This document shows, in pieces, positions 1 through 12,431 of a stretch of 56,358 bases of DNA. The stretch's first letter is position 1. The number at the start of each line of letters is the position of its first letter. Source of the stretch: Minisyncoccota bacterium (GTDB lineage Bacteria; Patescibacteriota; Minisyncoccia; Phycocordibacterales; Phycocordibacteraceae); contig JBAYJU010000001.1 of NCBI GenBank assembly GCA_041664865.1, positions 1-56,358 on the forward strand, read 5' to 3'. The position numbers were made by a program, and so were the translations under genes. The notes under the pieces are model-generated. The model was not told where the DNA came from. It saw only the letters and a list, made by a program, of their open reading frames with translations, and searched no databases.

Positions 1-122
1 TCAAACTCCTGTACATCAGCGCGTTTTCTCTTCCCTTTCACGAAATCTTTCCACGCATCAAGAAGATTCTCGACTGAGATGATATGCTCGTATGTATGAA
101 TGAATCGGATTCTTTGAGGCGA
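1..122 (-). CDS. Reverse transcriptase, N-terminal fragment (DGR-type; continues beyond window start; start codon unresolved)
   Basis: The minus frame with codons 3-5, 6-8 ... 120-122 reads SPQRIRFIHTYEHIISVENLLDAWKDFVKGKRKRADVQEF. This is the ENLLxAWxxxxKGKR-type N-terminus I recognise from DGR / group-II-like RTs. It sits next to avd and a TR/VR pair. This frame has no ATG/GTG/TTG between the stop at 189-191 and the motif. Confidence 0.6.
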
Positions 123-131
123 CCCCCCCCC
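123..131. repeat. C9 (G9 on minus strand) homopolymer at the RT 5' end, directly upstream of avd
   Basis: Read directly: ga-ccccccccc-gaggatg. It is the only long homopolymer I noticed in the window. Confidence 0.9.
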
Positions 132-135
132 GAGG

Positions 136-507
136 ATGTTGCCGGTGCTTGAGTGGATTAAACATGCGTATATCTTGTGGTATGGATTCTATCAGACCAT
201 ACCGAAGACCCATCGACACACTCTTGGCGGGAAAGTAGATGCGGAGTTTGTGGGACTTATCGAAGCGGTCGCGAGTGCCAGCTTCCTGTCGCGAGGTGAG
301 AAGCAACCATGGGTGCGACTCGCCATACGCAAGCTCGATACCCTAAAGGTGTTTTTGCTCATACTCTGGGAAACCAAATCACTTGATACAAAAAAATACA
401 TCGCGCTGTCTATGCCGCTTGATGAAGTCGGCAGAATGCTCGGCGGATGGAACGGGCAACTCACAAAGCAAAACTCGCCAGCGCAACAAGGCGCGGGCGA
501 GAAATGA
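136..507 (+). CDS. avd: DGR accessory variability determinant (Avd), four-helix-bundle / 23S-rRNA-IVS protein family
   Basis: 123-aa ORF with ..YQTIPKTHRHTLG.. and a C-terminal ..EVGRMLGGWNGQLTKQN.. basic tail, the pattern of Avd-type four-helix-bundle proteins. It lies between the RT and the TR. A GTG at 145 is an alternative start (GAGG at 132-135). Confidence 0.75.
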   Translation: MLPVLEWIKHAYILWYGFYQTIPKTHRHTLGGKVDAEFVGLIEAVASASFLSRGEKQPWVRLAIRKLDTLKVFLLILWETKSLDTKKYIALSMPLDEVGRMLGGWNGQLTKQNSPAQQGAGEK

Positions 508-513
508 AGAGAT

Positions 514-625
514 TTGCGGGAAGCAGGTACACCGGCAAGGAACCAATTGTCGTTCCAGTCGTTGTCGTTGCGATTGCAATTCACGTTCCGCTCGTCGTTC
601 CAGCGGTTGAACGTGAGGTAGCAAT
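514..625 (-). repeat. DGR template repeat (TR)
   Basis: 112 nt, identical to 975-1086 (offset 461) except at 12 positions. At all 12 this copy has T on the plus strand, i.e. A on the sense strand. The sense strand is AAC/AAT-rich (FNRWNDERNVNCNRNDNDWNDNW) and is preceded by in-frame TAG TGA. Confidence 0.85.
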
Positions 626-647
626 GTGTGGAGTGCCATCTATATCA

Positions 648-854
648 CTACCCATTGAAGCCTTGTGCGATCTCAGAGTTGTCTGCGGTGGTTCCGCGGT
701 CTTCGGCATCATAATGCCAGAGCACTTCACACCAAGTATCTTCATTTTTTGAAGTGTCTGCGTGCATCCTCCATTTGAAACCATAATCACAAATGTTCTC
801 AATGCACGGATACTGGGTTCGGTAGCGGGAAACCGTAATCGCCCGCGTATTCAC
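648..854 (-). CDS. Small hypothetical ORF (68 aa, GTG start) upstream of TR; possibly a decayed copy of the target C-terminal domain
   Basis: ORF track. The Cys/Trp pattern YPCIENICDYGFKW..W..W loosely parallels YPNCTQWGDNCYLTFDRW..W..W of the target. It ends with tandem stops TAG TGA (648-650, 645-647), and the same frame continues into the TR. Confidence 0.25.
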   Translation of the reverse strand: MNTRAITVSRYRTQYPCIENICDYGFKWRMHADTSKNEDTWCEVLWHYDAEDRGTTADNSEIAQGFNG

Positions 855-874
855 CTACTACCAATCACAGTGTA

Positions 875-912
875 CCAAAAGAAAACAGCATATCGCAGAG
901 CGATATGCTGTT
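875..912 (-). terminator. Rho-independent terminator of the DGR target gene
   Basis: 13-bp perfect stem aacagcatatcgc / gcgatatgctgtt (884-896 / 900-912) with loop aga. On the minus strand it is followed by ttttcttttgg. Confidence 0.7.
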
Positions 913-970
913 GAAAGAAGAAAGGGTTAAGAATCCAAGGGCAAGTTCTAAGTTGCCAGAGGTACAAGTA

Positions 971-1564
971 CTACTTGCGGGAAGCAGGTACACCGGCAAG
1001 GAACCAATAGTCGTCCCAGTCGTGGCCGCTGCGATCGCAACACACGCGCCGCTCGTCGTCCCAGCGGTCGAACGTGAGGTAGCAATTGTCACCCCACTGC
1101 GTACAGTTAGGGTACGCATCGGCGAATGCCGAATCGGCTTCGTTCACGGCCGCTGTAGCTCGCGGATCCGGTACGAGTCCGTACTGCGCGAGGAACGCAG
1201 GGACATCTTTCGCCGGCACAAAGCGCTTGGTCGGGACGAAGTGGACATCCACTTCCTCGCCCTCTCCAATCGGCATCGTGGCTAGCACATCTTTGTCGAC
1301 ATACTGCTTACGGCCCGTGGCGTCAATGACTTTTTGCGGGGTGCGAGTGCGGTCGACGCGAACATGGCGTTTGATGGTTCCCTCCGGGAACGCCATTGCA
1401 TGAACCGAAGACGCCCGGTTCTTCACCGCTTCGGCGAAAAGTCTGATTGCATCTTCTGTGTTCTGGATCGCCCATTGGCGACACTCAGTCGACATGATGC
1501 AGAAGTGGTGTTGATGTTCAGTTAATGCCCCAGCCAACTTGGAAATCTGTTGTTGTTCACTCAT
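971..1564 (-). CDS. DGR target (variable) protein, 197 aa, no signal peptide; fold unassigned
   Basis: Intact ORF with AAGGAG upstream of the ATG at 1562-1564. Its last 37 codons are the VR (..CYLTFDRWDDERRVCCDRSGHDWDDYWFLAGVPASRK). Confidence 0.85.
   Translation of the reverse strand: MSEQQQISKLAGALTEHQHHFCIMSTECRQWAIQNTEDAIRLFAEAVKNRASSVHAMAFPEGTIKRHVRVDRTRTPQKVIDATGRKQYVDKDVLATMPIGEGEEVDVHFVPTKRFVPAKDVPAFLAQYGLVPDPRATAAVNEADSAFADAYPNCTQWGDNCYLTFDRWDDERRVCCDRSGHDWDDYWFLAGVPASRK
975..1086 (-). repeat. DGR variable repeat (VR), 3' end of the target gene
   Basis: Partner of 514-625. There are 12 substitutions, all opposite TR adenines, changing 10 codons (TR N,N,N,N,N,N,D,N,N,N -> VR D,D,R,C,D,S,G,H,D,Y). 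The sense-3' 32 nt (975-1006) are invariant. Confidence 0.85.
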
Positions 1565-1621
1565 GGCTTTCTCCTTTATGAGAGTGTTTTTACAACGCTG
1601 TTCAAGCTAGCCCGAATGGGT

Positions 1622-1690
1622 TTCGCCACAGCAGAAAATCCCTAGGGCTGCCTGCCCCGAGCTAGTCGAGGGGCTTTCTGCTGTGGCGAA
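1622..1690 (-). promoter_or_regulatory. Long hairpin in the 5' leader of the DGR target gene
   Basis: 16-bp perfect stem ttcgccacagcagaaa (1622-1637) / tttctgctgtggcgaa (1675-1690) with a 37-nt GC-rich apical part. It lies between the putative promoter and the ATG at 1564. Confidence 0.4.
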
Positions 1691-1726
1691 TGCAAGCTTA
1701 GTCTCAAAGAGCTATGTACTGAGTGT

Positions 1727-1755
1727 ATTATTGCACGATACTATATTTCTGTCAA
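1727..1755 (-). promoter_or_regulatory. Sigma70-like promoter for the DGR target gene
   Basis: Minus strand TTGACA (1750-1755), 17-nt spacer, AATAAT (1727-1732). Confidence 0.4.
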
Positions 1756-1775
1756 ACTCACCCGAAGCGCTACAC

Positions 1776-2843
1776 CTATTCAAGCTTCCGTAATGCGAGG
1801 CCTACTGCTACCGCAAACTCAGGACCTATCTCCTCGAGTATTGGGCGCATGAATGCTGGCGCTGAAGTCTTCACAAAAGGGTCTGCCACTCGCACGTCAA
1901 TTGAGAATATCTTTTTCGCATATGCCCCGAGCGACTTCGTGACGCCGCCACCTCCAGTGAGCACGATCGAGCTGATCGACTTATTGTGCGATGTCTCATA
2001 CTGCGTCACCACTCGATGCGCCTCTGTGAAAATGCGAGAGAACACTAGCTCTAGGCTCTCATGCGCACCATCACCCTCCATCCCTTTCTCTTTCTTGACT
2101 GCCTCGGCTCTAGGAATAGAAACCCCGCTCGATACGGAAATAGCACGCGTTATGTCCTGACTACCGACACTGATAGAGTGCGAAAGCGCCACGATGCCAT
2201 GCTCGACTACATAAATCTTTGTCGATGCAGCACCAATATCGAGCACCATGACAGGCTTCACTGGCTCGTCTACCACGGCGCGTATGGTACTGAATATCTC
2301 TATCTCGTAGAAACTTGAAGAGAGTCCAGCGCCTGCAACTACCGACTGCAGGAGAGAAAGCTCGTCGTTGTGAACCGCAACAATAAGTACATCGACGGTA
2401 CTCTGTCGTTCAACATTCTCCTGAGGGCCGATTTTGGGCACGATGAACCAATCCAGCTGCACTTCGCTTATAGGCACAGGGATATATTTCCTAGCCTCTA
2501 GCTCGATGACCGTCTTCTGCTCTTTTGGGTCCTTCCGATACGGAAGTTCCACAAGAGAGAGTAGAGAGCGCGAGAATGGGATCGAGACTCCGCAACTCGT
2601 CGTAGTCACTTTCGCTTCACGCAAGAGATCCTTCAATGTCTCGACGACTTGCTCTTGCGAGAGACTCGTCGCCTGACCTACGTCGCCGCCGGCATATGGG
2701 CCGAGCGCGAGCTCGCCATATGTCTCGAGAACCGCCTGCCCCTTTTCCTTACGGAGCTGTACGACCTTCAGTGATGAAGATCCTATGTCCACACCCAAAA
2801 CACTCTTCTCCTGTTTAGAAAATAGAAAATCTAGGAACGCCAT
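1776..2843 (-). CDS. pilM: Type IV pilus assembly protein PilM (actin-like ATPase)
   Basis: N-terminus ..SVLGVDIGSSSLKVVQL.. and overall actin/FtsA-like PilM pattern; 355 aa. Confidence 0.8.
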   Translation of the reverse strand: MAFLDFLFSKQEKSVLGVDIGSSSLKVVQLRKEKGQAVLETYGELALGPYAGGDVGQATSLSQEQVVETLKDLLREAKVTTTSCGVSIPFSRSLLSLVELPYRKDPKEQKTVIELEARKYIPVPISEVQLDWFIVPKIGPQENVERQSTVDVLIVAVHNDELSLLQSVVAGAGLSSSFYEIEIFSTIRAVVDEPVKPVMVLDIGAASTKIYVVEHGIVALSHSISVGSQDITRAISVSSGVSIPRAEAVKKEKGMEGDGAHESLELVFSRIFTEAHRVVTQYETSHNKSISSIVLTGGGGVTKSLGAYAKKIFSIDVRVADPFVKTSAPAFMRPILEEIGPEFAVAVGLALRKLE

Positions 2844-2857
2844 GGGAAAATGATACC

Positions 2858-3487
2858 ATGTTCCGACTCATCGACATCATATTCCCGCCCCGCGCGGATG
2901 AGATCGTAATGCGAGACACTTCTGATGATGACTTCCTCTCGCTCGTCTCTCCACGGCTCGTGCCGGCTACACGACCTGGGACAGTAGCGCTACTACCCTT
3001 CTATCACCCGTCTGTTCGATCCGCAATTCACGAAGCGAAATATCATGGCAATGAACGCGCGCGTCGGCTCCTAGCGCTCGCTCTTGCCGAATATCTGTGC
3101 GATTCCGACGATGTAGGACATCGGAAGTCCTACATCGTGCCGGTGCCACTCGGGAAAGCTCGGCGCAGAGAACGAGGATTTAATCAGGCAGAGGAGGTCG
3201 CGCGGCGTGCAATCCATAACCTCGGGAAAGAAAGCACACAGAGATTCAAACTCGATACCAGCCTGCTCGTGCGCACTCGCGAGACTGTCTCTCAAGTCTC
3301 GCTACCGAGACTCGAGCGCGAAGAAAACATGCGCGGCGCCTTCGGCGCCGCGCATCCCGCCGACCCTACCAGCACATATCTGATTATCGACGACGTGCTC
3401 ACCACAGGTGCCACGCTCCAAGCAGCAATCGACGCGCTCAAATCTGCTGGTGCCACCAATATCATCCCGCTCGCCTTAGCGCACTAG
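2858..3487 (+). CDS. ComF-family phosphoribosyltransferase-like protein
   Basis: C-terminal PRTase motif YLIIDDVLTTGATL and GFNQAE, typical of ComFC; 209 aa. Confidence 0.75.
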   Translation: MFRLIDIIFPPRADEIVMRDTSDDDFLSLVSPRLVPATRPGTVALLPFYHPSVRSAIHEAKYHGNERARRLLALALAEYLCDSDDVGHRKSYIVPVPLGKARRRERGFNQAEEVARRAIHNLGKESTQRFKLDTSLLVRTRETVSQVSLPRLEREENMRGAFGAAHPADPTSTYLIIDDVLTTGATLQAAIDALKSAGATNIIPLALAH

Positions 3488-3504
3488 GATGCTAGAATGG
3501 AGAT

Positions 3505-4506
3505 ATGGCTGAGATGTTTAAAGGTAAACGCGCAGTGTTCCCTGCTGGAGAACAGAGAAAATTTCTAGATGGAATCTGCCAAAAAGAAACACTCGCTCGC
3601 ATTGCGCTTATCTGCAAATGCTCCGAGCGCACGGTTCGCGATTGGCGCAGAGAGAAATTCTCCATGCCGCTTGGCGCCACACACGCACTATCTACTCATT
3701 TTAACGTACCGATTTCTGAAAAGATGTGCATTCGTGATGCGTATGCACATATTCCAAGAGCAAGCCGTATGGGAGCTGCAGCAACAATCAAGAAATACGG
3801 AAGCATCCCTCGCAACGAAGAACACCGGAAGAAGCAGTGGAGACTGTGGTGGGAATCGACAGGCAAACTTGCCAAAAATCCAATTCTCGAATCAAAAATC
3901 GTTTATAGACCGAAGCATGGCGCGAAGCTCGCTGAATTTATCGGCATCATGATGGGCGATGGAGGTCTCACCATGTATCAAGCCATAGTCACACTTCACC
4001 ATGTGGATGATTTAGAATACGCTTCATTTGTGAAAGGCCTCATCAAGAGACTTTTCAAAATCGAACCAAAAATGTATCACTCTCCGAAAAATTCGGTGAA
4101 TGATATTGTCGTGTCCAGAAAAAAATTGGTTATATATCTGCATGAACTAGGGCTACCAATTGGAAACAAGATCGACCAGCGACTAGATATACCTTTGTGG
4201 ATTAGATGTAACCGAACTTTCGCGATTGCATGCTTGCGCGGACTAGTTGATACGGACGGATGTGTCTTTACGCATCGTTACCGGGTAAAGGGCACGTGGT
4301 ACGCCTACAAGAAACTCTCCTTCACGAGCGCATCGAAACCATTACTGGAATCCGTGCATGATTTATTACAAGAACTAGGATTCCATCCCAGAACAACAGC
4401 GAAAGACGTACGCCTTGATAGGACAGAAGACATAAGACGCTATTTCAAGATAATCGGAAGCCACAATCCGAAACATTTGAGAAGATACGAAAATACGCTA
4501 GGATAG
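3505..4506 (+). CDS. LAGLIDADG-family homing-endonuclease-like protein with N-terminal HTH-like region (free-standing)
   Basis: Two LAGLIDADG motifs: FIGIMMGDGGL and LRGLVDTDGCV; 333 aa. Not embedded in a recognisable intron or intein. Confidence 0.8.
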   Translation: MAEMFKGKRAVFPAGEQRKFLDGICQKETLARIALICKCSERTVRDWRREKFSMPLGATHALSTHFNVPISEKMCIRDAYAHIPRASRMGAAATIKKYGSIPRNEEHRKKQWRLWWESTGKLAKNPILESKIVYRPKHGAKLAEFIGIMMGDGGLTMYQAIVTLHHVDDLEYASFVKGLIKRLFKIEPKMYHSPKNSVNDIVVSRKKLVIYLHELGLPIGNKIDQRLDIPLWIRCNRTFAIACLRGLVDTDGCVFTHRYRVKGTWYAYKKLSFTSASKPLLESVHDLLQELGFHPRTTAKDVRLDRTEDIRRYFKIIGSHNPKHLRRYENTLG

Positions 4507-4513
4507 CGATACA

Positions 4514-4603
4514 GGATGGGTGACTGAGTGGCCGAAAGTACCACACTGCTAACGTGGCAGGAGCGAAAGCTCCTCGAGGGTTCGAATCCCTCCCCATCCG
4601 CCA
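4514..4603 (+). tRNA. tRNA-Ser (anticodon GCT), CCA encoded
   Basis: Acceptor GGATGGG/CCCATCC, 3-bp D stem, anticodon loop CT-GCT-AA, long variable arm AGGAGCGAAAGCTCCTC, T arm GAGGG-TTCGAAT-CCCTC, G-CCA. Confidence 0.9.
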
Positions 4604-4702
4604 GTAGTTTTGAAAAGCGAGCAGTGAAATCCCCTTATTTTAAGGGCCCATCTTAAAAACGAAATTTATAAAAACAGCTGAACCAGCAAGGGATTCGAAC
4701 TT

Positions 4703-5194
4703 ATGAAAATAATGATTTTTACAGAAGGTACGATTTTGATGCATAAAAATGCTTCGGGTTTGACGCGGGAAGAAATCGTTAAACAAGTTCAAGACGAAGA
4801 ATCCTCAGTTCATGATTATAGTTTTTATATACCAGTTGGTAACGCCGTTAATAAAATTAAATTATGGCAAGACCAAGGTGCTGAGATTTTGTATCTAACA
4901 TCCCGAAAGCGACAAGAAGAAATTAAAGAGATATCAGGAGTGTTAAAGAAATACGATTTTCCTGAGGGCAAGCTTCTGAGCAGAAAAGATGAGCAGGAAT
5001 ATAAGGATGTTGCAGAGGAGACGGTGCCAGACATATTTATAGAGGACGATTGTGAAAGTATCGGTGGTATCAATGAGATGACCTACACGCATATAAGCTC
5101 TGACTTAAAGGGCAAAATCAAATCAATACCCGTAAAGGAATTTGGAGGAATTGATTATTTGCCCGATTCAGTTAAAGATTTAAAAACGTTATAA
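4703..5194 (+). CDS. Hypothetical protein in an AT-rich islet (vaguely HAD-like, lacks the DxD nucleophile motif)
   Basis: 163-aa ORF. It is visibly more AT-rich than its surroundings, lies immediately 3' of tRNA-Ser and is closed by a terminator. Confidence 0.55.
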   Translation: MKIMIFTEGTILMHKNASGLTREEIVKQVQDEESSVHDYSFYIPVGNAVNKIKLWQDQGAEILYLTSRKRQEEIKEISGVLKKYDFPEGKLLSRKDEQEYKDVAEETVPDIFIEDDCESIGGINEMTYTHISSDLKGKIKSIPVKEFGGIDYLPDSVKDLKTL

Positions 5195-5233
5195 ACCTCT
5201 AACTTCGGGACATCATCACCGCAAAATCAAAAC

Positions 5234-5270
5234 ACAATCGCCGGCGCGAAGCGCCGGCGATTGTTTTTTG
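5234..5270. terminator. Bidirectional terminator hairpin
   Basis: acaatcgccggcgc-gaa-gcgccggcgattgt followed by tttttg, with an A-tract upstream. It sits between convergent genes. Confidence 0.75.
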
Positions 5271-5293
5271 ATTTGTAACAAAAACAGTGACGC

Positions 5294-5512
5294 CTATACC
5301 TGACACGAGTTGCACTGCCCTTTGCTTGTGAACACAAGCATAAGTGCCGAGAGACCTACGAGCAAGTAGACGAAAGTCTCTACTGATGGCCATGAACCGA
5401 GAAGAAGATTGACTACATTCCAATTGCCGCCCATATAAGAACCGAGCGCTACGAGCCCCCAGTTGAGCCCGCCGATGATGACGAGCAAGAACATTATGCA
5501 ATGCATTTTCAT
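5294..5512 (-). CDS. DUF378-like small membrane protein
   Basis: ..IIGGLNWGLVALG..NLLLG.. pattern; 72 aa, two TM segments. Confidence 0.6.
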   Translation of the reverse strand: MKMHCIMFLLVIIGGLNWGLVALGSYMGGNWNVVNLLLGSWPSVETFVYLLVGLSALMLVFTSKGQCNSCQV

Positions 5513-5631
5513 GCTAGATGAGAATTATTATCGCGGTGGATAACCCGCTCACAACAGTATGGCTCATTTATTGCGACCGAAAAGACACCCTGTGCAAAAC
5601 TCTCTTACAATTCAGCTATACTGACTACATC

Positions 5632-6342
5632 ATGTTTCCATCACCAATCTACGTCTCGCTGGCCGTCCTCGTTATTGTGCTCGTATTGATTCTTATGCGA
5701 CCGCGGCGATTCTTCTTCGTACGCCATGGTGAGACACTTCTGAACTCAGAGCATATCCGGCAAGGCGAAGACGGCAATCTTTCAGAAAAAGGGCGGCGGC
5801 AGGCAGCACAAGTCGGTGCAGCACTCAAGAGCCTGCCCATCGAACGCATCATCTCGAGCACCTACCCACGCGCTAGAGAGACTGCGCAGATTATCAATAC
5901 GTATCTGAATGTGCCAGTGATTTTCTCAACGCTTCTCACCGAGCGCCGCAACCCGAGCGAAATTATCGGCAAGAAGACTCATGACCCTGATGTCATACGA
6001 ATAGTTGATGCGATGGATCTCGCATATCACGATGATGACTATCGCATCTCAGATGAAGAAAATTTCTCTGATGAGAAAGAGCGTGCGCGCAAATGCCTGA
6101 ACATCCTTGCGAGCCAGGGAGCGCACGAAACAGTCGTAGTCACGCACCACCATTTTCTCAAGATGCTCATCGCGTATGCGCTATACCATGAGCGACTCCA
6201 TGCAGGTGATTTCATCAAGCTGTCGTTCTTCAACGTATCAGATAACGCCGGTATAACAGTGTGCGAATATCACCCATGGAAGATGTTCTCCGCGACTCGC
6301 GGCTGGCAGATCGTGAGCTTCAACGAAATTCCAGAAGGATAA
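5632..6342 (+). CDS. Histidine phosphatase (phosphoglycerate-mutase family), N-terminal membrane anchor
   Basis: FVRHGET motif. I placed the start at the internal ATG 5632 (MFPSPIYVSLAVLVIVLV..), because the longer ORF from 5518 abuts the divergent gene. Confidence 0.7.
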   Translation: MFPSPIYVSLAVLVIVLVLILMRPRRFFFVRHGETLLNSEHIRQGEDGNLSEKGRRQAAQVGAALKSLPIERIISSTYPRARETAQIINTYLNVPVIFSTLLTERRNPSEIIGKKTHDPDVIRIVDAMDLAYHDDDYRISDEENFSDEKERARKCLNILASQGAHETVVVTHHHFLKMLIAYALYHERLHAGDFIKLSFFNVSDNAGITVCEYHPWKMFSATRGWQIVSFNEIPEG

Positions 6343-6346
6343 AAAA

Positions 6347-6387
6347 CCAAAACACACACGGCGCTTTTGGCGCCGTGTGTGTTTTGG
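6347..6387. terminator. Bidirectional terminator hairpin
   Basis: ccaaaacacacacggcgc-tttt-ggcgccgtgtgtgttttgg, between convergent genes. Confidence 0.8.
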
Positions 6388-6392
6388 TCATC

Positions 6393-8347
<1,955 letters not shown>

Positions 8348-8462
8348 ATTGTTCTATATATAAATGAATAAACGCCCGCGCACCTGTAGGGGGAGTATAG
8401 AGAAACGCACACCTATACGCAACTTGCGCGCGGGTGTGGGTATGCTATCTTTACATGTACAG

Positions 8463-8702
8463 ATGGAGGCACTCGTATCGGCACTACCGTACGCGGAAAT
8501 AATCCTCTCAATACTCCTCATAGTCGGCATCGTGCTCCAGCAGCGCGGCGCAAACCTAGGAGGGGCCTTCGGAGGCGATAATTTCGCATCAACATTTTAC
8601 AAGCGCCGTGGCGCCGAGAAATTTCTATTCAATGCGACAATACTCACAGCGGTGCTCCTCGTACTCGCGGCGATAGCGAACTTCCTTCTGGCAGGATCAT
8701 GA
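8463..8702 (+). CDS. secG: Preprotein translocase subunit SecG
   Basis: ..LLIVGIVLQQRGANLGGAFGG.. signature. Internal ATG 8463 chosen (79 aa). Confidence 0.7.
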   Translation: MEALVSALPYAEIILSILLIVGIVLQQRGANLGGAFGGDNFASTFYKRRGAEKFLFNATILTAVLLVLAAIANFLLAGS

Positions 8703-10426
8703 CCGACGAGACTCGTTCTCCATGGAGAGAACAGCTTGCACGCACTCGTACTATACCGGCATTCGACCGTCTGCGCGTTTACGTTCGCGGGCTTTCGCTC
8801 GGTGATCGCGTAATATTCTATGCTCTAGCTGGAATCGTAGGCATTGTCTCCATCACTAGCCTGTTCGCACTTGAGCAGTCGCTCCTTGAAAAGATACCGA
8901 CATACGGTGGCTCTCTGGTCGAGGGCACTGTAGGTAGTCCGCAATTCATCAATCCGCTCCTCGCGATTAGCGATGCAGACCGAGACCTTGCGACACTTAC
9001 ACACAGCGGCCTCATGAGACTCTCTGGTTCCGGTACACTAGTCCCTGAACTTGCGGAGAACTACACCATAAGCGCCGACGGCAAGACGTACACATTCGCT
9101 CTGCGCAAAGGCATGAAATTCTCAGACGGAACGCCAGTTACTGCAGATGATGTCGTGTTTACAGTAAAGAAAGCTCAAGACCCAGCACTGAAGAGCCCCG
9201 AATACGCGGACTGGTCTGGAGTGAATGTGGTCGCCGTTGATTCACAGACCGTGCAATTCACACTCTCAAAACCATACGCACCGTTCTTAGGTCTCACGAC
9301 CATGGGTATTCTCCCGTCGAGACTATGGCAGGGCATCTCAGATGCGGAGTTTCCATTCTCTTCGCTTGAGACAAGCCCAGTCGGCACCGGACCATTCAAG
9401 GTAGCGAGCGTCTCGCGCAATGCATCAGGACTCATACAGAGTGTGTCTCTCATTGGGAATCCGTATTACATTTCTGGCAAGCCCTATCTCGACAGCATCC
9501 GATTCAACTTCTACTCTAATACCGAAGATCTCGCACGTGCGCTGACTAGTGGCGCGATTGAAAGTGCCTACGGAGTGACTACGCCAGGCGCCATGACGGC
9601 ACCATATGCTCGAGTGTTCGGCGTATTCTTCAACCAAAGTGAGAACCCGGTCTACGCTCGTACCGAAGTCCGCAAGGCTCTCTCGCTCGCGATTGACCGG
9701 CAAGATATCATCTCTTCGATGCTTAGCGGCAATGCAACACCAATCATGGGGCCAGTTCCGCCAGGCGGAGGGGTGATACAGGCTCCAGTGCCACAACCGA
9801 ATATCCCGTCTGCTTCAGCGGCGATACTCAGGGCGGCAGGGTGGACATACGACGGGGATGCGCGCGCATGGAAAAATGCGAAAGTGCCACAGACACTTGA
9901 TAAAGTCACCATCCGCACCTCAAATGTCCCTGAACTGAAGAACGTCGCTGGCGCTGTGAAAGCAAGCTGGGAAAAGCTAGGCATCTCAGTCACCGTAGAG
10001 CTATACGAGCCGGGTGACCTATCTCAGAACGTAATCCGTCCTCGCAAGTATGAAGCTCTACTATACGGCATGGTAATCGGGCGCGACCAAGATCTATACG
10101 CCTTCTGGGACTCGCAAGAGCAGAATGACCCCGGCCTCAACATCGCGCTCTATGCGAACAAGACCGTCGACACCCTACTTGAGCGCGCGCGAGGCACTAC
10201 AGACGATGAGGCTCGCCTGGCAGACCTACAGAAGATTGAAGACACCGTCGCTAGAGACTATCCAGCAGCATTCCTCTACGCACCGAATTTCATCTACTCC
10301 ATGCCCAGTGAGGTACGCGGCGTCTCGCTCCCGCAGATCATCACTCCAGCAGATCGCTTCGCAACTGTGACAGAGTGGTATCGTTATACCGATTCCGTCT
10401 GGCCATTCTTCGCTCCAAAAAAGTAG
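8699..10426 (+). CDS. ABC-transporter substrate-binding protein, family 5 (peptide/nickel type), membrane-anchored; no permease or ATPase nearby
   Basis: ..YTFALRKGMKFSDGTPVTADDVVFT.. motif; 575 aa. ATGA overlap with secG. Confidence 0.8.
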   Translation: MTDETRSPWREQLARTRTIPAFDRLRVYVRGLSLGDRVIFYALAGIVGIVSITSLFALEQSLLEKIPTYGGSLVEGTVGSPQFINPLLAISDADRDLATLTHSGLMRLSGSGTLVPELAENYTISADGKTYTFALRKGMKFSDGTPVTADDVVFTVKKAQDPALKSPEYADWSGVNVVAVDSQTVQFTLSKPYAPFLGLTTMGILPSRLWQGISDAEFPFSSLETSPVGTGPFKVASVSRNASGLIQSVSLIGNPYYISGKPYLDSIRFNFYSNTEDLARALTSGAIESAYGVTTPGAMTAPYARVFGVFFNQSENPVYARTEVRKALSLAIDRQDIISSMLSGNATPIMGPVPPGGGVIQAPVPQPNIPSASAAILRAAGWTYDGDARAWKNAKVPQTLDKVTIRTSNVPELKNVAGAVKASWEKLGISVTVELYEPGDLSQNVIRPRKYEALLYGMVIGRDQDLYAFWDSQEQNDPGLNIALYANKTVDTLLERARGTTDDEARLADLQKIEDTVARDYPAAFLYAPNFIYSMPSEVRGVSLPQIITPADRFATVTEWYRYTDSVWPFFAPKK

Positions 10427-10490
10427 TTTCTATTTTCGTACGGGTTTCAGTTTCGATTTATTAAATTACCCGAACAATTAATCAACAATT

Positions 10491-12431
10491 ATGCAACCAT
10501 CACCAGCACCGGCTCCAGCGCCGATCCATCCTACAGAGCCAGACACCAGCCCGCGACAAGCGGCGCCGAGAAGTGGCGCACGCCCTCCTCGCCCATTCGA
10601 TCGGAGCGGCCCACGCCCCTCTCGCTCGCCTGCCGGAAGCAGGCAGGGAGCAGCACGCCCAGGCAGCGCGACACGACGCATCCAGCGGATACTCCGCCGC
10701 CCCACACCTACACGAGTTCGTGCCTCTGTGGACTACTTCCCTGAACCAGCAGGGCCTACTACCGTGCGCATCATCCCACTAGGTGGTGTCGAGGAAGTCG
10801 GCCGCAACATGACAGCAGTCGAGATAGGCGCAACTGGCGACATCATCGTGTTCGACGCTGGATTCCAATTCGTCTCTGAAGATTCCGCACCAGGAGTCGA
10901 CTACATACTCCCGAACACGAAATATCTAGAGAAGAACGCTTCGCGAGTTAAGGGAGTCATCATCACACACGGGCACCTCGACCACATCGGCGGGATTCCA
11001 TTCCTACTTCCCCGCTTCGGCACACCACCTATCTACACACAGAACCTCACGTCGATCATGATCCAGCGCCGCCAGGAAGAATATCCAGACGTTCCCAAAT
11101 CTGAAATGGTCATCGTAGAAGCCGGGCAGTCTGTCACGATCGGCTCGACGCGTGTTAAGTTCTTCCCTGTAACACACTCGATCCCAGACTCGATGGGCGC
11201 ATCTGTGGAAACACCACAAGGGAACGTCATCGTCTCTGGAGACTTGAAACTCGACCACGAAGACGGAATACCGTCTGAGCGCGAACAGAAGACCTGGGGA
11301 GATCTCGGCAAAGACAAGAATATATTCATGGTCGCCGACTCGACCAATGCCGAACGAGACGGGTTCTCTATCCCTGAAGCGCGCGTAATCCAGACACTCG
11401 AAGATATAATCAAGACTGTCTCTGGACGCCTAATCATCGGCACATTCGCGTCACAGTTCGAGCGCATGATTCACATTATGGAATCCGCTGAGAAGCACGG
11501 AAAAAAGATTATCCTAGAGGGGCGATCTATCAAGACCAATCTTGAGATTGCCGAGAAGACAGGTCTCCTCAAGGTGAAGAAGGAGACGTTCATCCAGTCG
11601 CAAGACATCGGCAATTATTCGCCAGACAAGATAGTCATACTATCGACCGGCGCGCAGGGGGAGGAATTCGCAGCGCTCATGCGCATCTCGACCGAACAGA
11701 ACAAATACATCACGCTAAACGATCGCGACACTATCGTGCTCTCATCGTCTGTCATCCCTGGAAACGAAATCTCCGTGCAGAAGTTGAAAGACAATCTCTA
11801 CCGACACAACGTGACGCTCATACACTATCGCTCATCAGACGTGCACTCGACTGGCCACGGGAACTCGGGCGAGCTCGCCTGGATAAACAAAATGGTGCAT
11901 CCGACATTCTTCATGCCAGGCTACGGCTACCGATCTATGACTACCTGCCACGCAAAGGCTATCGAGCAGTCTGGCTTCCCGCGCGAGAATATAATTATCG
12001 CGGACAACGGCTTCGTCATCGACATCGAGAATGGCGACAAGCTGAATGTGCACAAGCAACGAGTGCCTTCCGCTCCTATGGTCGTCGACGGATTCACTAT
12101 TGGCGACATACAAGAGGTCGTGATACGCGATCGCCAGTCGCTAGCCAAGGACGGCATGTTCGTAATCATCGCGAGCGTGAACCTGAAGACCGGCAAACTC
12201 CGCAAGTCGCCAGATATCATCAGTCGCGGATTCGTGTACCTACGAGAGTCACAGGACCTCTTGAATGAGGCGCGACTTCTGATCAAGAAGACGATTGAAG
12301 ACTCGACGCACAACATGAACCCTATCGACCTCGACTATGTGAAAAACAACCTCACCGACGTCATGGCGGGGTTCCTCTTCGCCCGCACCAACAAAGCCCC
12401 GATGGTGATTCCTGTCCTCATCGGTCTTTAG
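10491..12431 (+). CDS. rnj: Ribonuclease J with Pro/Arg-rich N-terminal extension
   Basis: Metallo-beta-lactamase HGHLDHIGG plus beta-CASP and C-terminal domain pattern. The first ~90 aa are low complexity (PAPAPAP, RPPRP). Confidence 0.85.
   Translation: MQPSPAPAPAPIHPTEPDTSPRQAAPRSGARPPRPFDRSGPRPSRSPAGSRQGAARPGSATRRIQRILRRPTPTRVRASVDYFPEPAGPTTVRIIPLGGVEEVGRNMTAVEIGATGDIIVFDAGFQFVSEDSAPGVDYILPNTKYLEKNASRVKGVIITHGHLDHIGGIPFLLPRFGTPPIYTQNLTSIMIQRRQEEYPDVPKSEMVIVEAGQSVTIGSTRVKFFPVTHSIPDSMGASVETPQGNVIVSGDLKLDHEDGIPSEREQKTWGDLGKDKNIFMVADSTNAERDGFSIPEARVIQTLEDIIKTVSGRLIIGTFASQFERMIHIMESAEKHGKKIILEGRSIKTNLEIAEKTGLLKVKKETFIQSQDIGNYSPDKIVILSTGAQGEEFAALMRISTEQNKYITLNDRDTIVLSSSVIPGNEISVQKLKDNLYRHNVTLIHYRSSDVHSTGHGNSGELAWINKMVHPTFFMPGYGYRSMTTCHAKAIEQSGFPRENIIIADNGFVIDIENGDKLNVHKQRVPSAPMVVDGFTIGDIQEVVIRDRQSLAKDGMFVIIASVNLKTGKLRKSPDIISRGFVYLRESQDLLNEARLLIKKTIEDSTHNMNPIDLDYVKNNLTDVMAGFLFARTNKAPMVIPVLIGL

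Follow-up and report, generated by a model that had tools for sequence, protein, structure and literature searches.

What produces two copies of a 112-nucleotide (nt) segment that differ only where one of them carries adenine, and is the machinery that made them still in a position to act? The question is posed by one end of a 56,358-bp stretch of DNA, the entire contig (JBAYJU010000001.1) of a Minisyncoccota metagenome-assembled genome (MAG), which is listed at NCBI as 'Candidatus Paceibacterota bacterium' and is referred to below, at its full length, as the window. Our answer is that window positions 1-1755 hold a chromosomal diversity-generating retroelement (DGR) cassette in the layout of Candidate Phyla Radiation (CPR) bacteria, in which a target gene ending in a variable repeat (VR) is followed by a template repeat (TR), a reversed avd gene and a reverse transcriptase (RT) gene, that the template is part of a structured RNA, and that the genome carries a second cassette whose intact RT would serve this one in trans. 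To this explanation as a whole, covering cassette identity, RNA model, two-cassette genome and RT in trans jointly, we assign a probability of about 0.7. The element is a genuine DGR but an ordinary one, its layout being already standard for CPR bacteria.

A repeat pair that differs only at template adenines

514..625, minus strand: template repeat, non-coding and rich in AAC/AAT codons, with in-frame TAG TGA before it (ungapped alignment)
975..1086, minus strand: variable repeat, the final 37 codons of the target gene (ungapped alignment with the TR)
971..1564, minus strand: DGR target gene, an intact open reading frame (ORF) of 197 aa, with an N-terminal helical module (residues 1-53) and an alpha/beta C-terminal domain (residues 64-193) that includes the VR

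Segments 514-625 and 975-1086 form a gap-free direct repeat of 112 nt at an offset of 461, and the same pair was obtained by tabulated alignment and by independent repeat finding. The copies differ at 12 positions (548, 554, 563, 565, 568, 575, 580, 581, 586, 587, 599 and 608, in the numbering of the first copy), at all of which the first copy has T on the plus strand, that is A on the minus strand, and the second has A, C or G. Given 29 adenines among the 112 nt of the minus strand of the first copy, the probability that 12 of 12 mismatches would fall on adenine by chance was 1.2e-8 (hypergeometric). Ten codons are altered from TR to VR (N,N,N,N,N,N,D,N,N,N becoming D,D,R,C,D,S,G,H,D,Y), and their template versions comprise nine AAY (Asn) codons and one GAC.

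An initial annotation, made from the sequence of the window, had proposed this repeat as a TR/VR pair with adenine-only substitutions, and re-tabulation reproduced its gapless alignment, its 12 mismatch positions and its ten codon changes; a tabulation of mismatches by TR base, set as a test beforehand, found none off adenine. The roles that it had given to the two copies were also borne out, as TAG TGA stands in frame before the first copy, whose flanking frames are unconserved among relatives, and the second copy closes the intact 197-aa ORF on the minus strand. The identical 3' end that it had described extends over 34 nt without a difference, the copies diverging immediately after ...CGCAA. 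Within the 56-kb window there were no further TR/VR copies and no target paralogues that this TR could serve.

Could the repeat be an ordinary duplicated gene fragment, or an assembly duplication, with an accidental adenine bias? Beyond the bare existence of a repeat nothing speaks for this, and we rejected it as having a negligible probability, given the chance value of 1.2e-8, the presence of the same TR/VR pair in three independent assemblies, which also disposes of the assembly duplication that the initial annotation had named as a danger to its own reading, and the repetition of the pattern at ~35 related loci beside Avd and RT. By homology with the Bordetella system, diversification would proceed through an RT-Avd complex that binds the template RNA and primes in cis; the TR would be copied into cDNA with random nucleotides opposite adenines, and the cDNA would then replace the VR, with the identical 34-nt 3' end acting as a homing segment like the initiation of mutagenic homing (IMH) site.

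The accessory genes and the layout shared with CPR relatives

136..507, plus strand, opposite to TR, VR, target and RT: avd (accessory variability determinant), 123 aa (profile matches)
123..131, unstranded: homopolymer of 9 bases, poly-C on the plus strand and poly-G on the RT strand, between the divergent avd and RT (homopolymer scan)
1..125, minus strand: N-terminus of the DGR RT, 41 codons, cut by the contig end (100% identical to residues 1-41 of the RT on contig L001)

The Avd gene that had been proposed at 136-507 was matched by profiles from Pfam (bAvd, 5.9e-10, 40.0 bits, which equals the cut-off), NCBIfam (DivGenRetAVD, 1.8e-14) and PHROG (3206, 'Avd protein of DGR', 2e-13), and a sequence search of the PDB gave no match to Avd; that the gene lies on the opposite strand had been left unstated. 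At the start of the window, minus-strand positions 125-3 encode 41 codons, GSPQRIRFIHTYEHIISVENLLDAWKDFVKGKRKRADVQEF, ending …IRFIHTYEHIISVENLLDAWKDFVKGKRKRADVQEF. The same frame on L001, a JGI contig with an identical Avd, runs on into an RT of 341 aa that has the motifs LGNLTSQ and YADD and a Pfam RVT_1 match, and whose best PDB match is the Bordetella bRT (8ub7 series, E 1.3e-49), the alignment beginning at the same N-terminal motif. The claim of an RT N-terminus at the window start was thus upheld by 41 codons identical to those of a full DGR-type RT.

The strand order is TR 625->514 minus, avd 136-507 plus and RT 125->1 minus, with the TR lying 349 nt downstream of the VR on the same strand. 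This is architecture B3, a TR-(avd)-RT core with avd reversed and no other accessory genes, and since B3 makes up 90% of the CPR DGR set (Wu et al. 2018, NAR, PMC5758913), the reversed avd is the known CPR norm and no oddity. A 'DGR clade 2' restricted to Patescibacteria, which we equate with B3, has been described (Roux et al. 2021, PMC8144416); its targets lack recognisable domains, and modules have been proposed to recombine onto VR domains at the C-terminus. By its layout and its type of target the cassette is a putative member of clade 2, and nothing contradicts this assignment. Searches of the target with PADLOC and PHROG for a defence or phage affiliation gave 0 matches.

Among GTDB species representatives, 80 loci were found with a profile of the target family, all of them in Patescibacteria-type MAGs, and ~35 of these have the order target (+), TR (+) 313-425 nt after the VR, avd (-) and RT (+), with avd reversed in every one. 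Their TR/VR mismatches fall nearly all on TR adenines (20/20 in L059; 17/17 in L024, L026, L039 and L045; 16/16 in L020 and L073). About half of the 80 loci hold a target only, for example L005, which lies in the same MAG as the complete L004. L045 also has, at 8280-12000, another DGR, whose target has a DUF1566-like VR and is followed on the same strand by avd, TR and RT, the canonical order; this DGR is likewise present in L065.

The template repeat lies within a conserved structured RNA

618..758, minus strand: structured RNA domain 5' of the TR, a three-way junction plus an upstream duplex strand (RNAalifold, covariance model)
762..807, minus strand: further conserved upstream hairpin of the TR RNA (covarying stem in the alignment, present in the minimum-free-energy fold of the window)
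502..510, minus strand: 3' duplex strand UCUUCAUUU, overlapping the avd stop codon (pairs with AAAUGAAGA at 747->739)
464..501, minus strand: stem-loop 501->474 followed by UUUUGCUUUG at 473->464, 3' of the TR and antisense to the 3' end of avd (conserved in ~30 loci)

Comparison of the TR-bearing loci indicated that the TR is embedded in a conserved structured RNA of ~340 nt, of which ~170 nt lie 5' of the TR. The 5' part folds into a three-way junction with helices P1 (732->721 with 637->626), P2 (718->705) and P3 (~690->645), preceded by the duplex strand at 747->739; P1, a long-range helix of 12 bp, stops one base short of the TR. RNAalifold gave 23 pairs for this domain, 19 of them with compensatory changes, and 96.1% of cells were paired, against 79.1% in column shuffles (0 of 500 reached the observed value) and 34-53% when the partners were slid. 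A covariance model of the domain, R1, found 41 matches in 870 kb, one per TR-bearing cassette and always on the TR strand, including eight loci outside the seed alignment and none of the target-only loci; the match in the window scored 95.8 bits (E 4e-18). Rfam returned nothing at the gathering threshold or at E <= 1 for window 1-1800 on both strands, and only two tRNAs for the whole window; the RT-1 to RT-19 motifs (Weinberg et al. 2017), which are included in that scan, gave no match. We had also considered that the conserved region upstream of the TR encodes a small protein (a 68-aa ORF at 648-854, minus strand), and rejected this, the frames diverging by indels while the helices covary.

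On the 3' side, ~30 loci share the succession of the repeat end …CGCAA, CUCUCUUCAUUUCUC, a GC-rich stem-loop of 7-12 bp and GAGUUUUGUUU (510->502, 501->474 and 473->464 in the window). The hairpin and GAGTTTTGTTT are kept in these ~30 loci, with compensatory changes in the consensus pairs, and all of these elements are antisense to the 3' end of avd, UCA being the avd stop codon. The stem-loop with its U-tract has the appearance of an intrinsic terminator and is also a candidate site of Avd binding, by analogy with the element predicted just downstream of the TR in 207 of 278 Avd-containing DGRs, including CPR ones (Handa et al. 2024, 10.1101/2023.10.23.563531).

The two sides are brought together by a long-range duplex, 747-739 with 510-502, which encloses the junction and the TR. 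Cognate strands had a mean RNAduplex energy of -7.9 kcal/mol, against -4.1 kcal/mol with shuffled partners, and compensatory variants (GAAGC/GCUUC, GAAGU/ACUUC and GGAGA/UCUCC) occur among L026, L033, L034, L042 and L073. When the window sequence from this region is folded by itself, the minimum-free-energy structure (z = -2.7) contains this duplex and the 3' stem-loop as well as P2 and part of P1. The predicted 3' stem-loop and the pairing of upstream with downstream strands agree with the RNA requirements of the Bordetella ribonucleoprotein.

How this RNA would be transcribed bears on the reversed avd. No convincing promoter consensus was found between 760 and 884. The terminator-like appearance of the stem-loop and U-tract makes it probable that the TR RNA is a transcript of its own, in which case the reversed avd need not be read through; with this conserved element ~50 nt beyond the TR, co-transcription of TR and RT through antisense avd is less likely. 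An 82-aa ORF on the plus strand (window 504-752), antisense to the TR and the structured RNA, appears in public gene calls on L001 and on a second contig, L002, and is most likely spurious.

The target gene belongs to a large family that varies at the templated positions

1727..1755, minus strand: sigma-70-type promoter of the target, TTGACA, 17 nt, AATAAT, with TG (11 of 12 positions match the consensus)
1622..1690, minus strand: hairpin in the 5' leader of the target, arms 1622-1643 and 1669-1690 (inverted repeat, covariation)
884..912, minus strand: intrinsic terminator of the target, 13-bp stem and T-run (sequence prediction)

NCBI annotates the target (WCW36_00015) from Met24, as a protein of 174 aa. 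The 197-aa form is probably the correct one: its start has an AAGGAG Shine-Dalgarno sequence 6 nt upstream, and its N-terminus is kept in the homologues P0002-P0004. The family is large: a search at E <= 0.001 gives 1,681 representatives of clusters formed at 50% identity, and 442 pass E <= 1e-30. Almost all of these have ~200 aa; the members have no signal peptide, and no Pfam domain was found in those from the first search. The C-terminal domain, of ~130 aa, is conserved, and the ~65 aa in front of it come as three or more unrelated N-terminal modules. AlphaFold2 predicted the full-length target as a helical N-terminal module followed by an alpha/beta C-terminal domain (pLDDT 92.7), and residues 61-197 alone with a pLDDT of 95.6 and a pTM of 0.90. 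A profile search of PDB sequences with the target gave nothing meaningful. C-type lectins recur among the sub-threshold Foldseek matches of the models (TM 0.3-0.45), and a divergent C-type lectin fold of the VR domain is possible on this modelling.

The family is hypervariable exactly at the AAY codons of the TR: the AAY-templated columns have an entropy of 3.0-3.3 bits with 11-14 residue types, against 0-0.4 bits in the scaffold W, R, G and F columns. Two close comparisons bring this down to the level of sister lineages. In two Minisyncoccota MAGs, the proteins P0006 and P0014 are the same at all but 8 of their 202 residues, and these 8 sit in the VR, at positions 174-191. For L045 and L065, a comparison of 7,357 nt shows changes confined to VR1 (12 sites), VR2 (23 sites), one hairpin patch and two poly-G tracts. 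Both pairs indicate that sister lineages are demonstrably diversifying at the VR. For the cassette of the window, a pattern scan of public metagenome contigs for VR variants, with N at all adenine-templated positions, gave 0 matches, and missed L001 itself, whose sample lies outside the collection.

P0007, P0008 and P0009 have identical C-terminal 128-134 aa, including the VR, behind three different N-terminal modules, as is also the case for the window and L001, which suggests that modules may be exchanged between the conserved leader and the conserved C-terminal domain. The type-1 module (MSEQQ...) is found, moreover, on proteins with quite different C-termini (P0104, P0118 and P0120).

The leader itself is marked by a hairpin of ~20 bp with the core GCCAYAGC...GCURUGGC, which recurs 5' of targets in many loci, including ones without TR, avd and RT. 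RNAalifold gave it 21 pairs, 11 with compensatory changes, and there were 7-12 double changes per pair at positions unused for sequence selection. The hairpin is undescribed in the CPR DGR papers examined and might be new.

Elsewhere in the window, a free-standing LAGLIDADG_3 homing-endonuclease-like ORF of 333 aa (3505-4506, plus strand) lies outside any obvious intron, its stop 8 nt before a tRNA gene (4514-4600).

Probably two cassettes in one genome, with an identical core and one intact reverse transcriptase

Since the contig ends inside the RT gene, the state of the RT has to be read from other assemblies. L002, an ENA contig, coincides with window 1-11564 except in the homopolymer at 123-131 (9 versus 11 bases) and extends beyond the window start, where RT residues 1-67 are joined, in another frame, to residues ~291-323 and are followed by secD and secF. 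This remnant (L002 11442-11736) has residues ~68-290, and hence all catalytic motifs, deleted, and the RT at the locus of the window, on the side of pilM, is probably a deleted remnant of this kind. L001 shares window 1-1307 at 100% identity (its positions 5604-6910), and L003 and L084 also hold parts of this second cassette. The shared core of 1,307 nt runs from the RT 5' end through avd and the TR RNA to the VR and the C-terminal domain of the target; past it, the window and L001 show 9 mismatches in 33 nt before the alignment is lost, and the L001 target, of 203 aa, begins with a different N-terminal module. L001 is flanked by folD on one side and by pilN-, pilO- and pilB-like genes on the other, and no homologues of these flanking genes were found in the window or L002. 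Window position 1 is the exact point at which L001 and L002 begin to differ, an assembly fork inside the RT gene and the last base shared with the twin cassette.

Further contigs break off inside the core. The folD flank and the first 127 codons of the 203-aa target are present in the same MAG as the window (WCW36_03475) and in the ENA sample of L002, on a contig that breaks 106 nt inside the shared core, and a Logan contig that includes the pil genes and the full RT begins 30 nt inside the core, which equals k-1 for that assembler. The 1.3-kb core is an exact repeat in two contexts, most simply explained as two loci of one genome. Because the RT remnants outside the core are only ~85% identical, the core appears to have been recently homogenised, which suggests gene conversion between the two loci; the paralogues are otherwise ~15-20% diverged. 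The genome would thus carry two cassettes with a shared 1,307-nt core, a dead RT remnant on the pilM side and, as we infer, a live, intact RT on the folD side, and the TR and VR of the window would most likely be served in trans by the latter. The 'complete set' that the initial annotation had seen here therefore holds in part: TR, VR, Avd and the RT N-terminus are present, and the RT of L002, which has the flanks of the window, is a deleted remnant. Its concern that the upstream ORF might lack DGR-type RT motifs receives a divided answer, LGNLTSQ and YADD being intact beyond the window in the L001 version and absent from the L002 version.

The same contigs can be read as two co-existing strains, with a core recently exchanged between them and with L001 and L002 possibly chimeric, in which case the window locus may carry an intact RT (pilM-target-TR-avd-RT-pilN-pilO-pilB) and its identity as a DGR is unaffected. 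For this speak the position of pilM next to the target in the window and of the pilN-, pilO- and pilB-like genes after the intact RT (L001, L084), so that joining the pilM and pilN sides gives a normal pil operon interrupted by a DGR, as well as the coincidence of the core edges with break points in three assemblies and the length of the window tract, 9 C as in L001 and not 11 as in L002. Yet the two contigs that cross the core are independent, and their joins complement and agree with each other (folD...full RT...pilN in L001; pilM...RT remnant...secD in L002), the four flanks are different genes of single-copy type without mutual homology, which fits two loci and not alleles, and the pilM-side and folD-side contigs were binned in one MAG. 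We therefore regard two strains as possible, though doubtful, and keep to two loci in one genome.

A second question is whether the window locus is a decaying relic, its RT deleted, its VR frozen and its adenine pattern a fossil of past homing. RT loss from such cassettes appears to be common, remnants recurring in unrelated MAGs: besides the L002 remnant without any catalytic motif, L072 retains RT fragments (residues 11-70, 227-266 and 305-326), L076 and L021 keep only the C-terminal third, and L006, L015 and L055 have a TR and no avd or RT. The VR is identical in the window, L001 and L002, that is, in three assemblies and at both loci, and the intact RT copy, at 9 G, has no in-frame canonical start. 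Against decay, the promoter, the target ORF, avd, the TR with its nine AAY codons and the RNA structure around it show no damage; the same bin and sample contain an intact RT whose avd and TR are identical to those here; 1,307 nt at 100% identity inside paralogues that are ~15-20% diverged indicate recent exchange rather than neglect; and close relatives are demonstrably diversifying. A relic is thus unlikely, and we retain a cassette that would be diversified by the RT of its twin.

Several observations nevertheless weigh against that explanation. Short reads cannot phase four flanks over an exact repeat of 1.3 kb, and the alternative join pilM-DGR-full RT-pilN-pilO would restore a contiguous pil operon and place an intact RT here. 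The lack of a canonical in-frame start codon in the intact RT with 9 G counts against the explanation too, and so does the identity of the VRs, because two independently diversifying targets would be expected to differ; this identity could instead reflect recent gene conversion or assembly collapse. The NCBIfam score of Avd, 53.9 bits, is below the curated cut-off of 80 bits, and Foldseek searches of the full-length and C-terminal-domain models against the PDB and BFVD found nothing at E < 0.05. A difference between IMH and IMH*, finally, is absent from within the repeat, whose 3' ends are identical, and downstream of the VR there are only short AT-containing inverted repeats (GTAC TT GTAC; GGCAA...TTGCC), with the terminator 60 nt off. 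Identical IMH/IMH* pairs do occur, and a GC-rich repeat is found in only 34% of DGRs (Wu et al. 2018, PMC5758913).

A length-variable poly-G tract at the avd/RT junction

The homopolymer between avd and RT is the sole G/C run of 8 or more in the 56-kb window (C9 at 123-131), and all 29 related avd/RT junctions have a tract of G8-G12 in this position (G8 in five, G9 in seven, G10 in ten, G11 in four and G12 in three). Across 808 kb of related loci there are 38 G/C runs of at least 8, and at least 29 of them lie exactly at the avd/RT junction. Tract length is the sole difference between the window and L002 in 11.5 kb (9 versus 11, with 9 in L001) and is among the very few differences between L045 and L065 (9 versus 11), which could partly be due to sequencing or assembly error.

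Two arrangements of the tract were distinguished among the relatives. At 15 of 29 loci it is directly followed by TAnnnT, and seven of these loci have an in-frame RT ATG 5-9 nt further on, usually 7, so that in about half of the relatives the tract looks like the spacer of a leaderless RT promoter. Between the two DGRs of L045 and L065 lies a gene for a secreted protein of 292 aa that is preceded by TTGCCA, 17 nt ending in G9, TATAAT and 6 nt before the ATG; the length of this promoter tract also differs between L045 and L065.

The subgroup of the window has no -10-like hexamer. From the poly-G tract to the conserved RT N-terminus there is no in-frame ATG, GTG or TTG, and the only canonical RT start is an ATG 34 nt upstream, which is in frame at 8 or 11 G. 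About one-third of the loci in this subgroup are in frame, as expected by chance, and their frames fit a phase-variable state and fit equally well no role of the tract in translation.

Phase-variable homopolymers are known from other bacteria: the porA promoter of Neisseria has a poly-G in its spacer, and poly-C runs are found in opc and in the fim promoters of Bordetella. We tentatively suggest that the junction tract may be a slipped-strand switch of the RT which, together with the lineage-specific three-way junction and with RT-less satellites converted to a master, would make a regulated multi-locus DGR, a proposal that we think rather improbable as a whole. Such a switch would act as a promoter spacer in about half of the relatives and would set the reading frame in the window subgroup, where 8 or 11 G would be the on states and 9 G the off state. 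Alternatively, the tract might serve in ribosome binding or as an RNA element.

Significance and comparison with known systems

The element itself adds little to what is known, as DGRs are known to be enriched in CPR bacteria and the layout is standard. What might be new is the template RNA with its three-way junction, the hairpin in the target leader, the poly-G tract and the presence of a twin cassette whose core is identical; a literature search for DGR homopolymers or covarying TR-flanking RNA in CPR bacteria returned nothing relevant, Paul et al. 2017, the main CPR DGR paper, aside. The template RNA can be defined from sequence alone, and the R1 model could improve DGR detection in CPR genomes and guide reconstitution. 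The length-variable homopolymer at every avd/RT junction of this clade offers a testable hypothesis on the regulation of DGRs, which is poorly understood, and would, if the proposal is true, be a hypermutable switch gating a hypermutator. A target family without Pfam domains, with a confidently predicted C-terminal domain and no significant structural match, bears on what CPR DGR targets bind. The RT-less cassette with an RT-bearing twin suggests, moreover, that 'incomplete' DGRs in MAGs should not be taken for dead before an RT acting in trans has been looked for.

Like the phase-variable tracts of Neisseria and Bordetella, the junction tract has 8-12 G and is polymorphic in length between otherwise identical sequences; in many relatives it lies between -35-like and -10-like hexamers, as in phase-variable promoters, an arrangement that is perfect in one neighbouring gene, and in the window subgroup it lies, as in phase-variable frames, in the sole frame that could give the RT a start codon. 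Unlike the established examples, it is known from sequences alone, and the in-frame share of about one-third equals chance.

The DGR of Bordetella phage BPP-1 (mtd-avd-TR-brt) shares with the cassette a homologous RT (E 1.3e-49) with (I/L)GxxxSQ and YxDD motifs, an Avd partner, adenine-specific mismatches, pairing between strands upstream and downstream of the template and, immediately 3' of the TR, a stem-loop (Handa et al. 2018, PMC6182149; Handa et al. 2024), and the enclosure of the template by upstream-downstream pairing recalls the Bordetella 'cPRT Stop' duplex. The two systems differ in that avd lies here on the other strand between TR and RT, with the 3' RNA elements antisense to avd and not in a free spacer; in that the downstream duplex strand follows the TR after 3-4 nt, against ~59 nt into the spacer in BPP-1; and in that a three-way junction of ~110 nt separates the upstream strand from the TR. 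The cassette is, furthermore, chromosomal and not phage-borne, and its target is no tail fibre; neither Mtd nor another solved variable protein matches the fold of this target significantly.

The closest likeness is to the B3 or clade 2 DGRs of CPR bacteria, which have the same order and orientation of TR, reversed avd and RT, a chromosomal location in a Patescibacteria genome and, for clade 2, small targets without a recognisable transmembrane or Pfam domain. Beyond the published accounts of these elements (Wu et al. 2018; Roux et al. 2021) go the G8-G12 tract, the three-way-junction RNA, the leader hairpin and the RT-deleted twin cassette.

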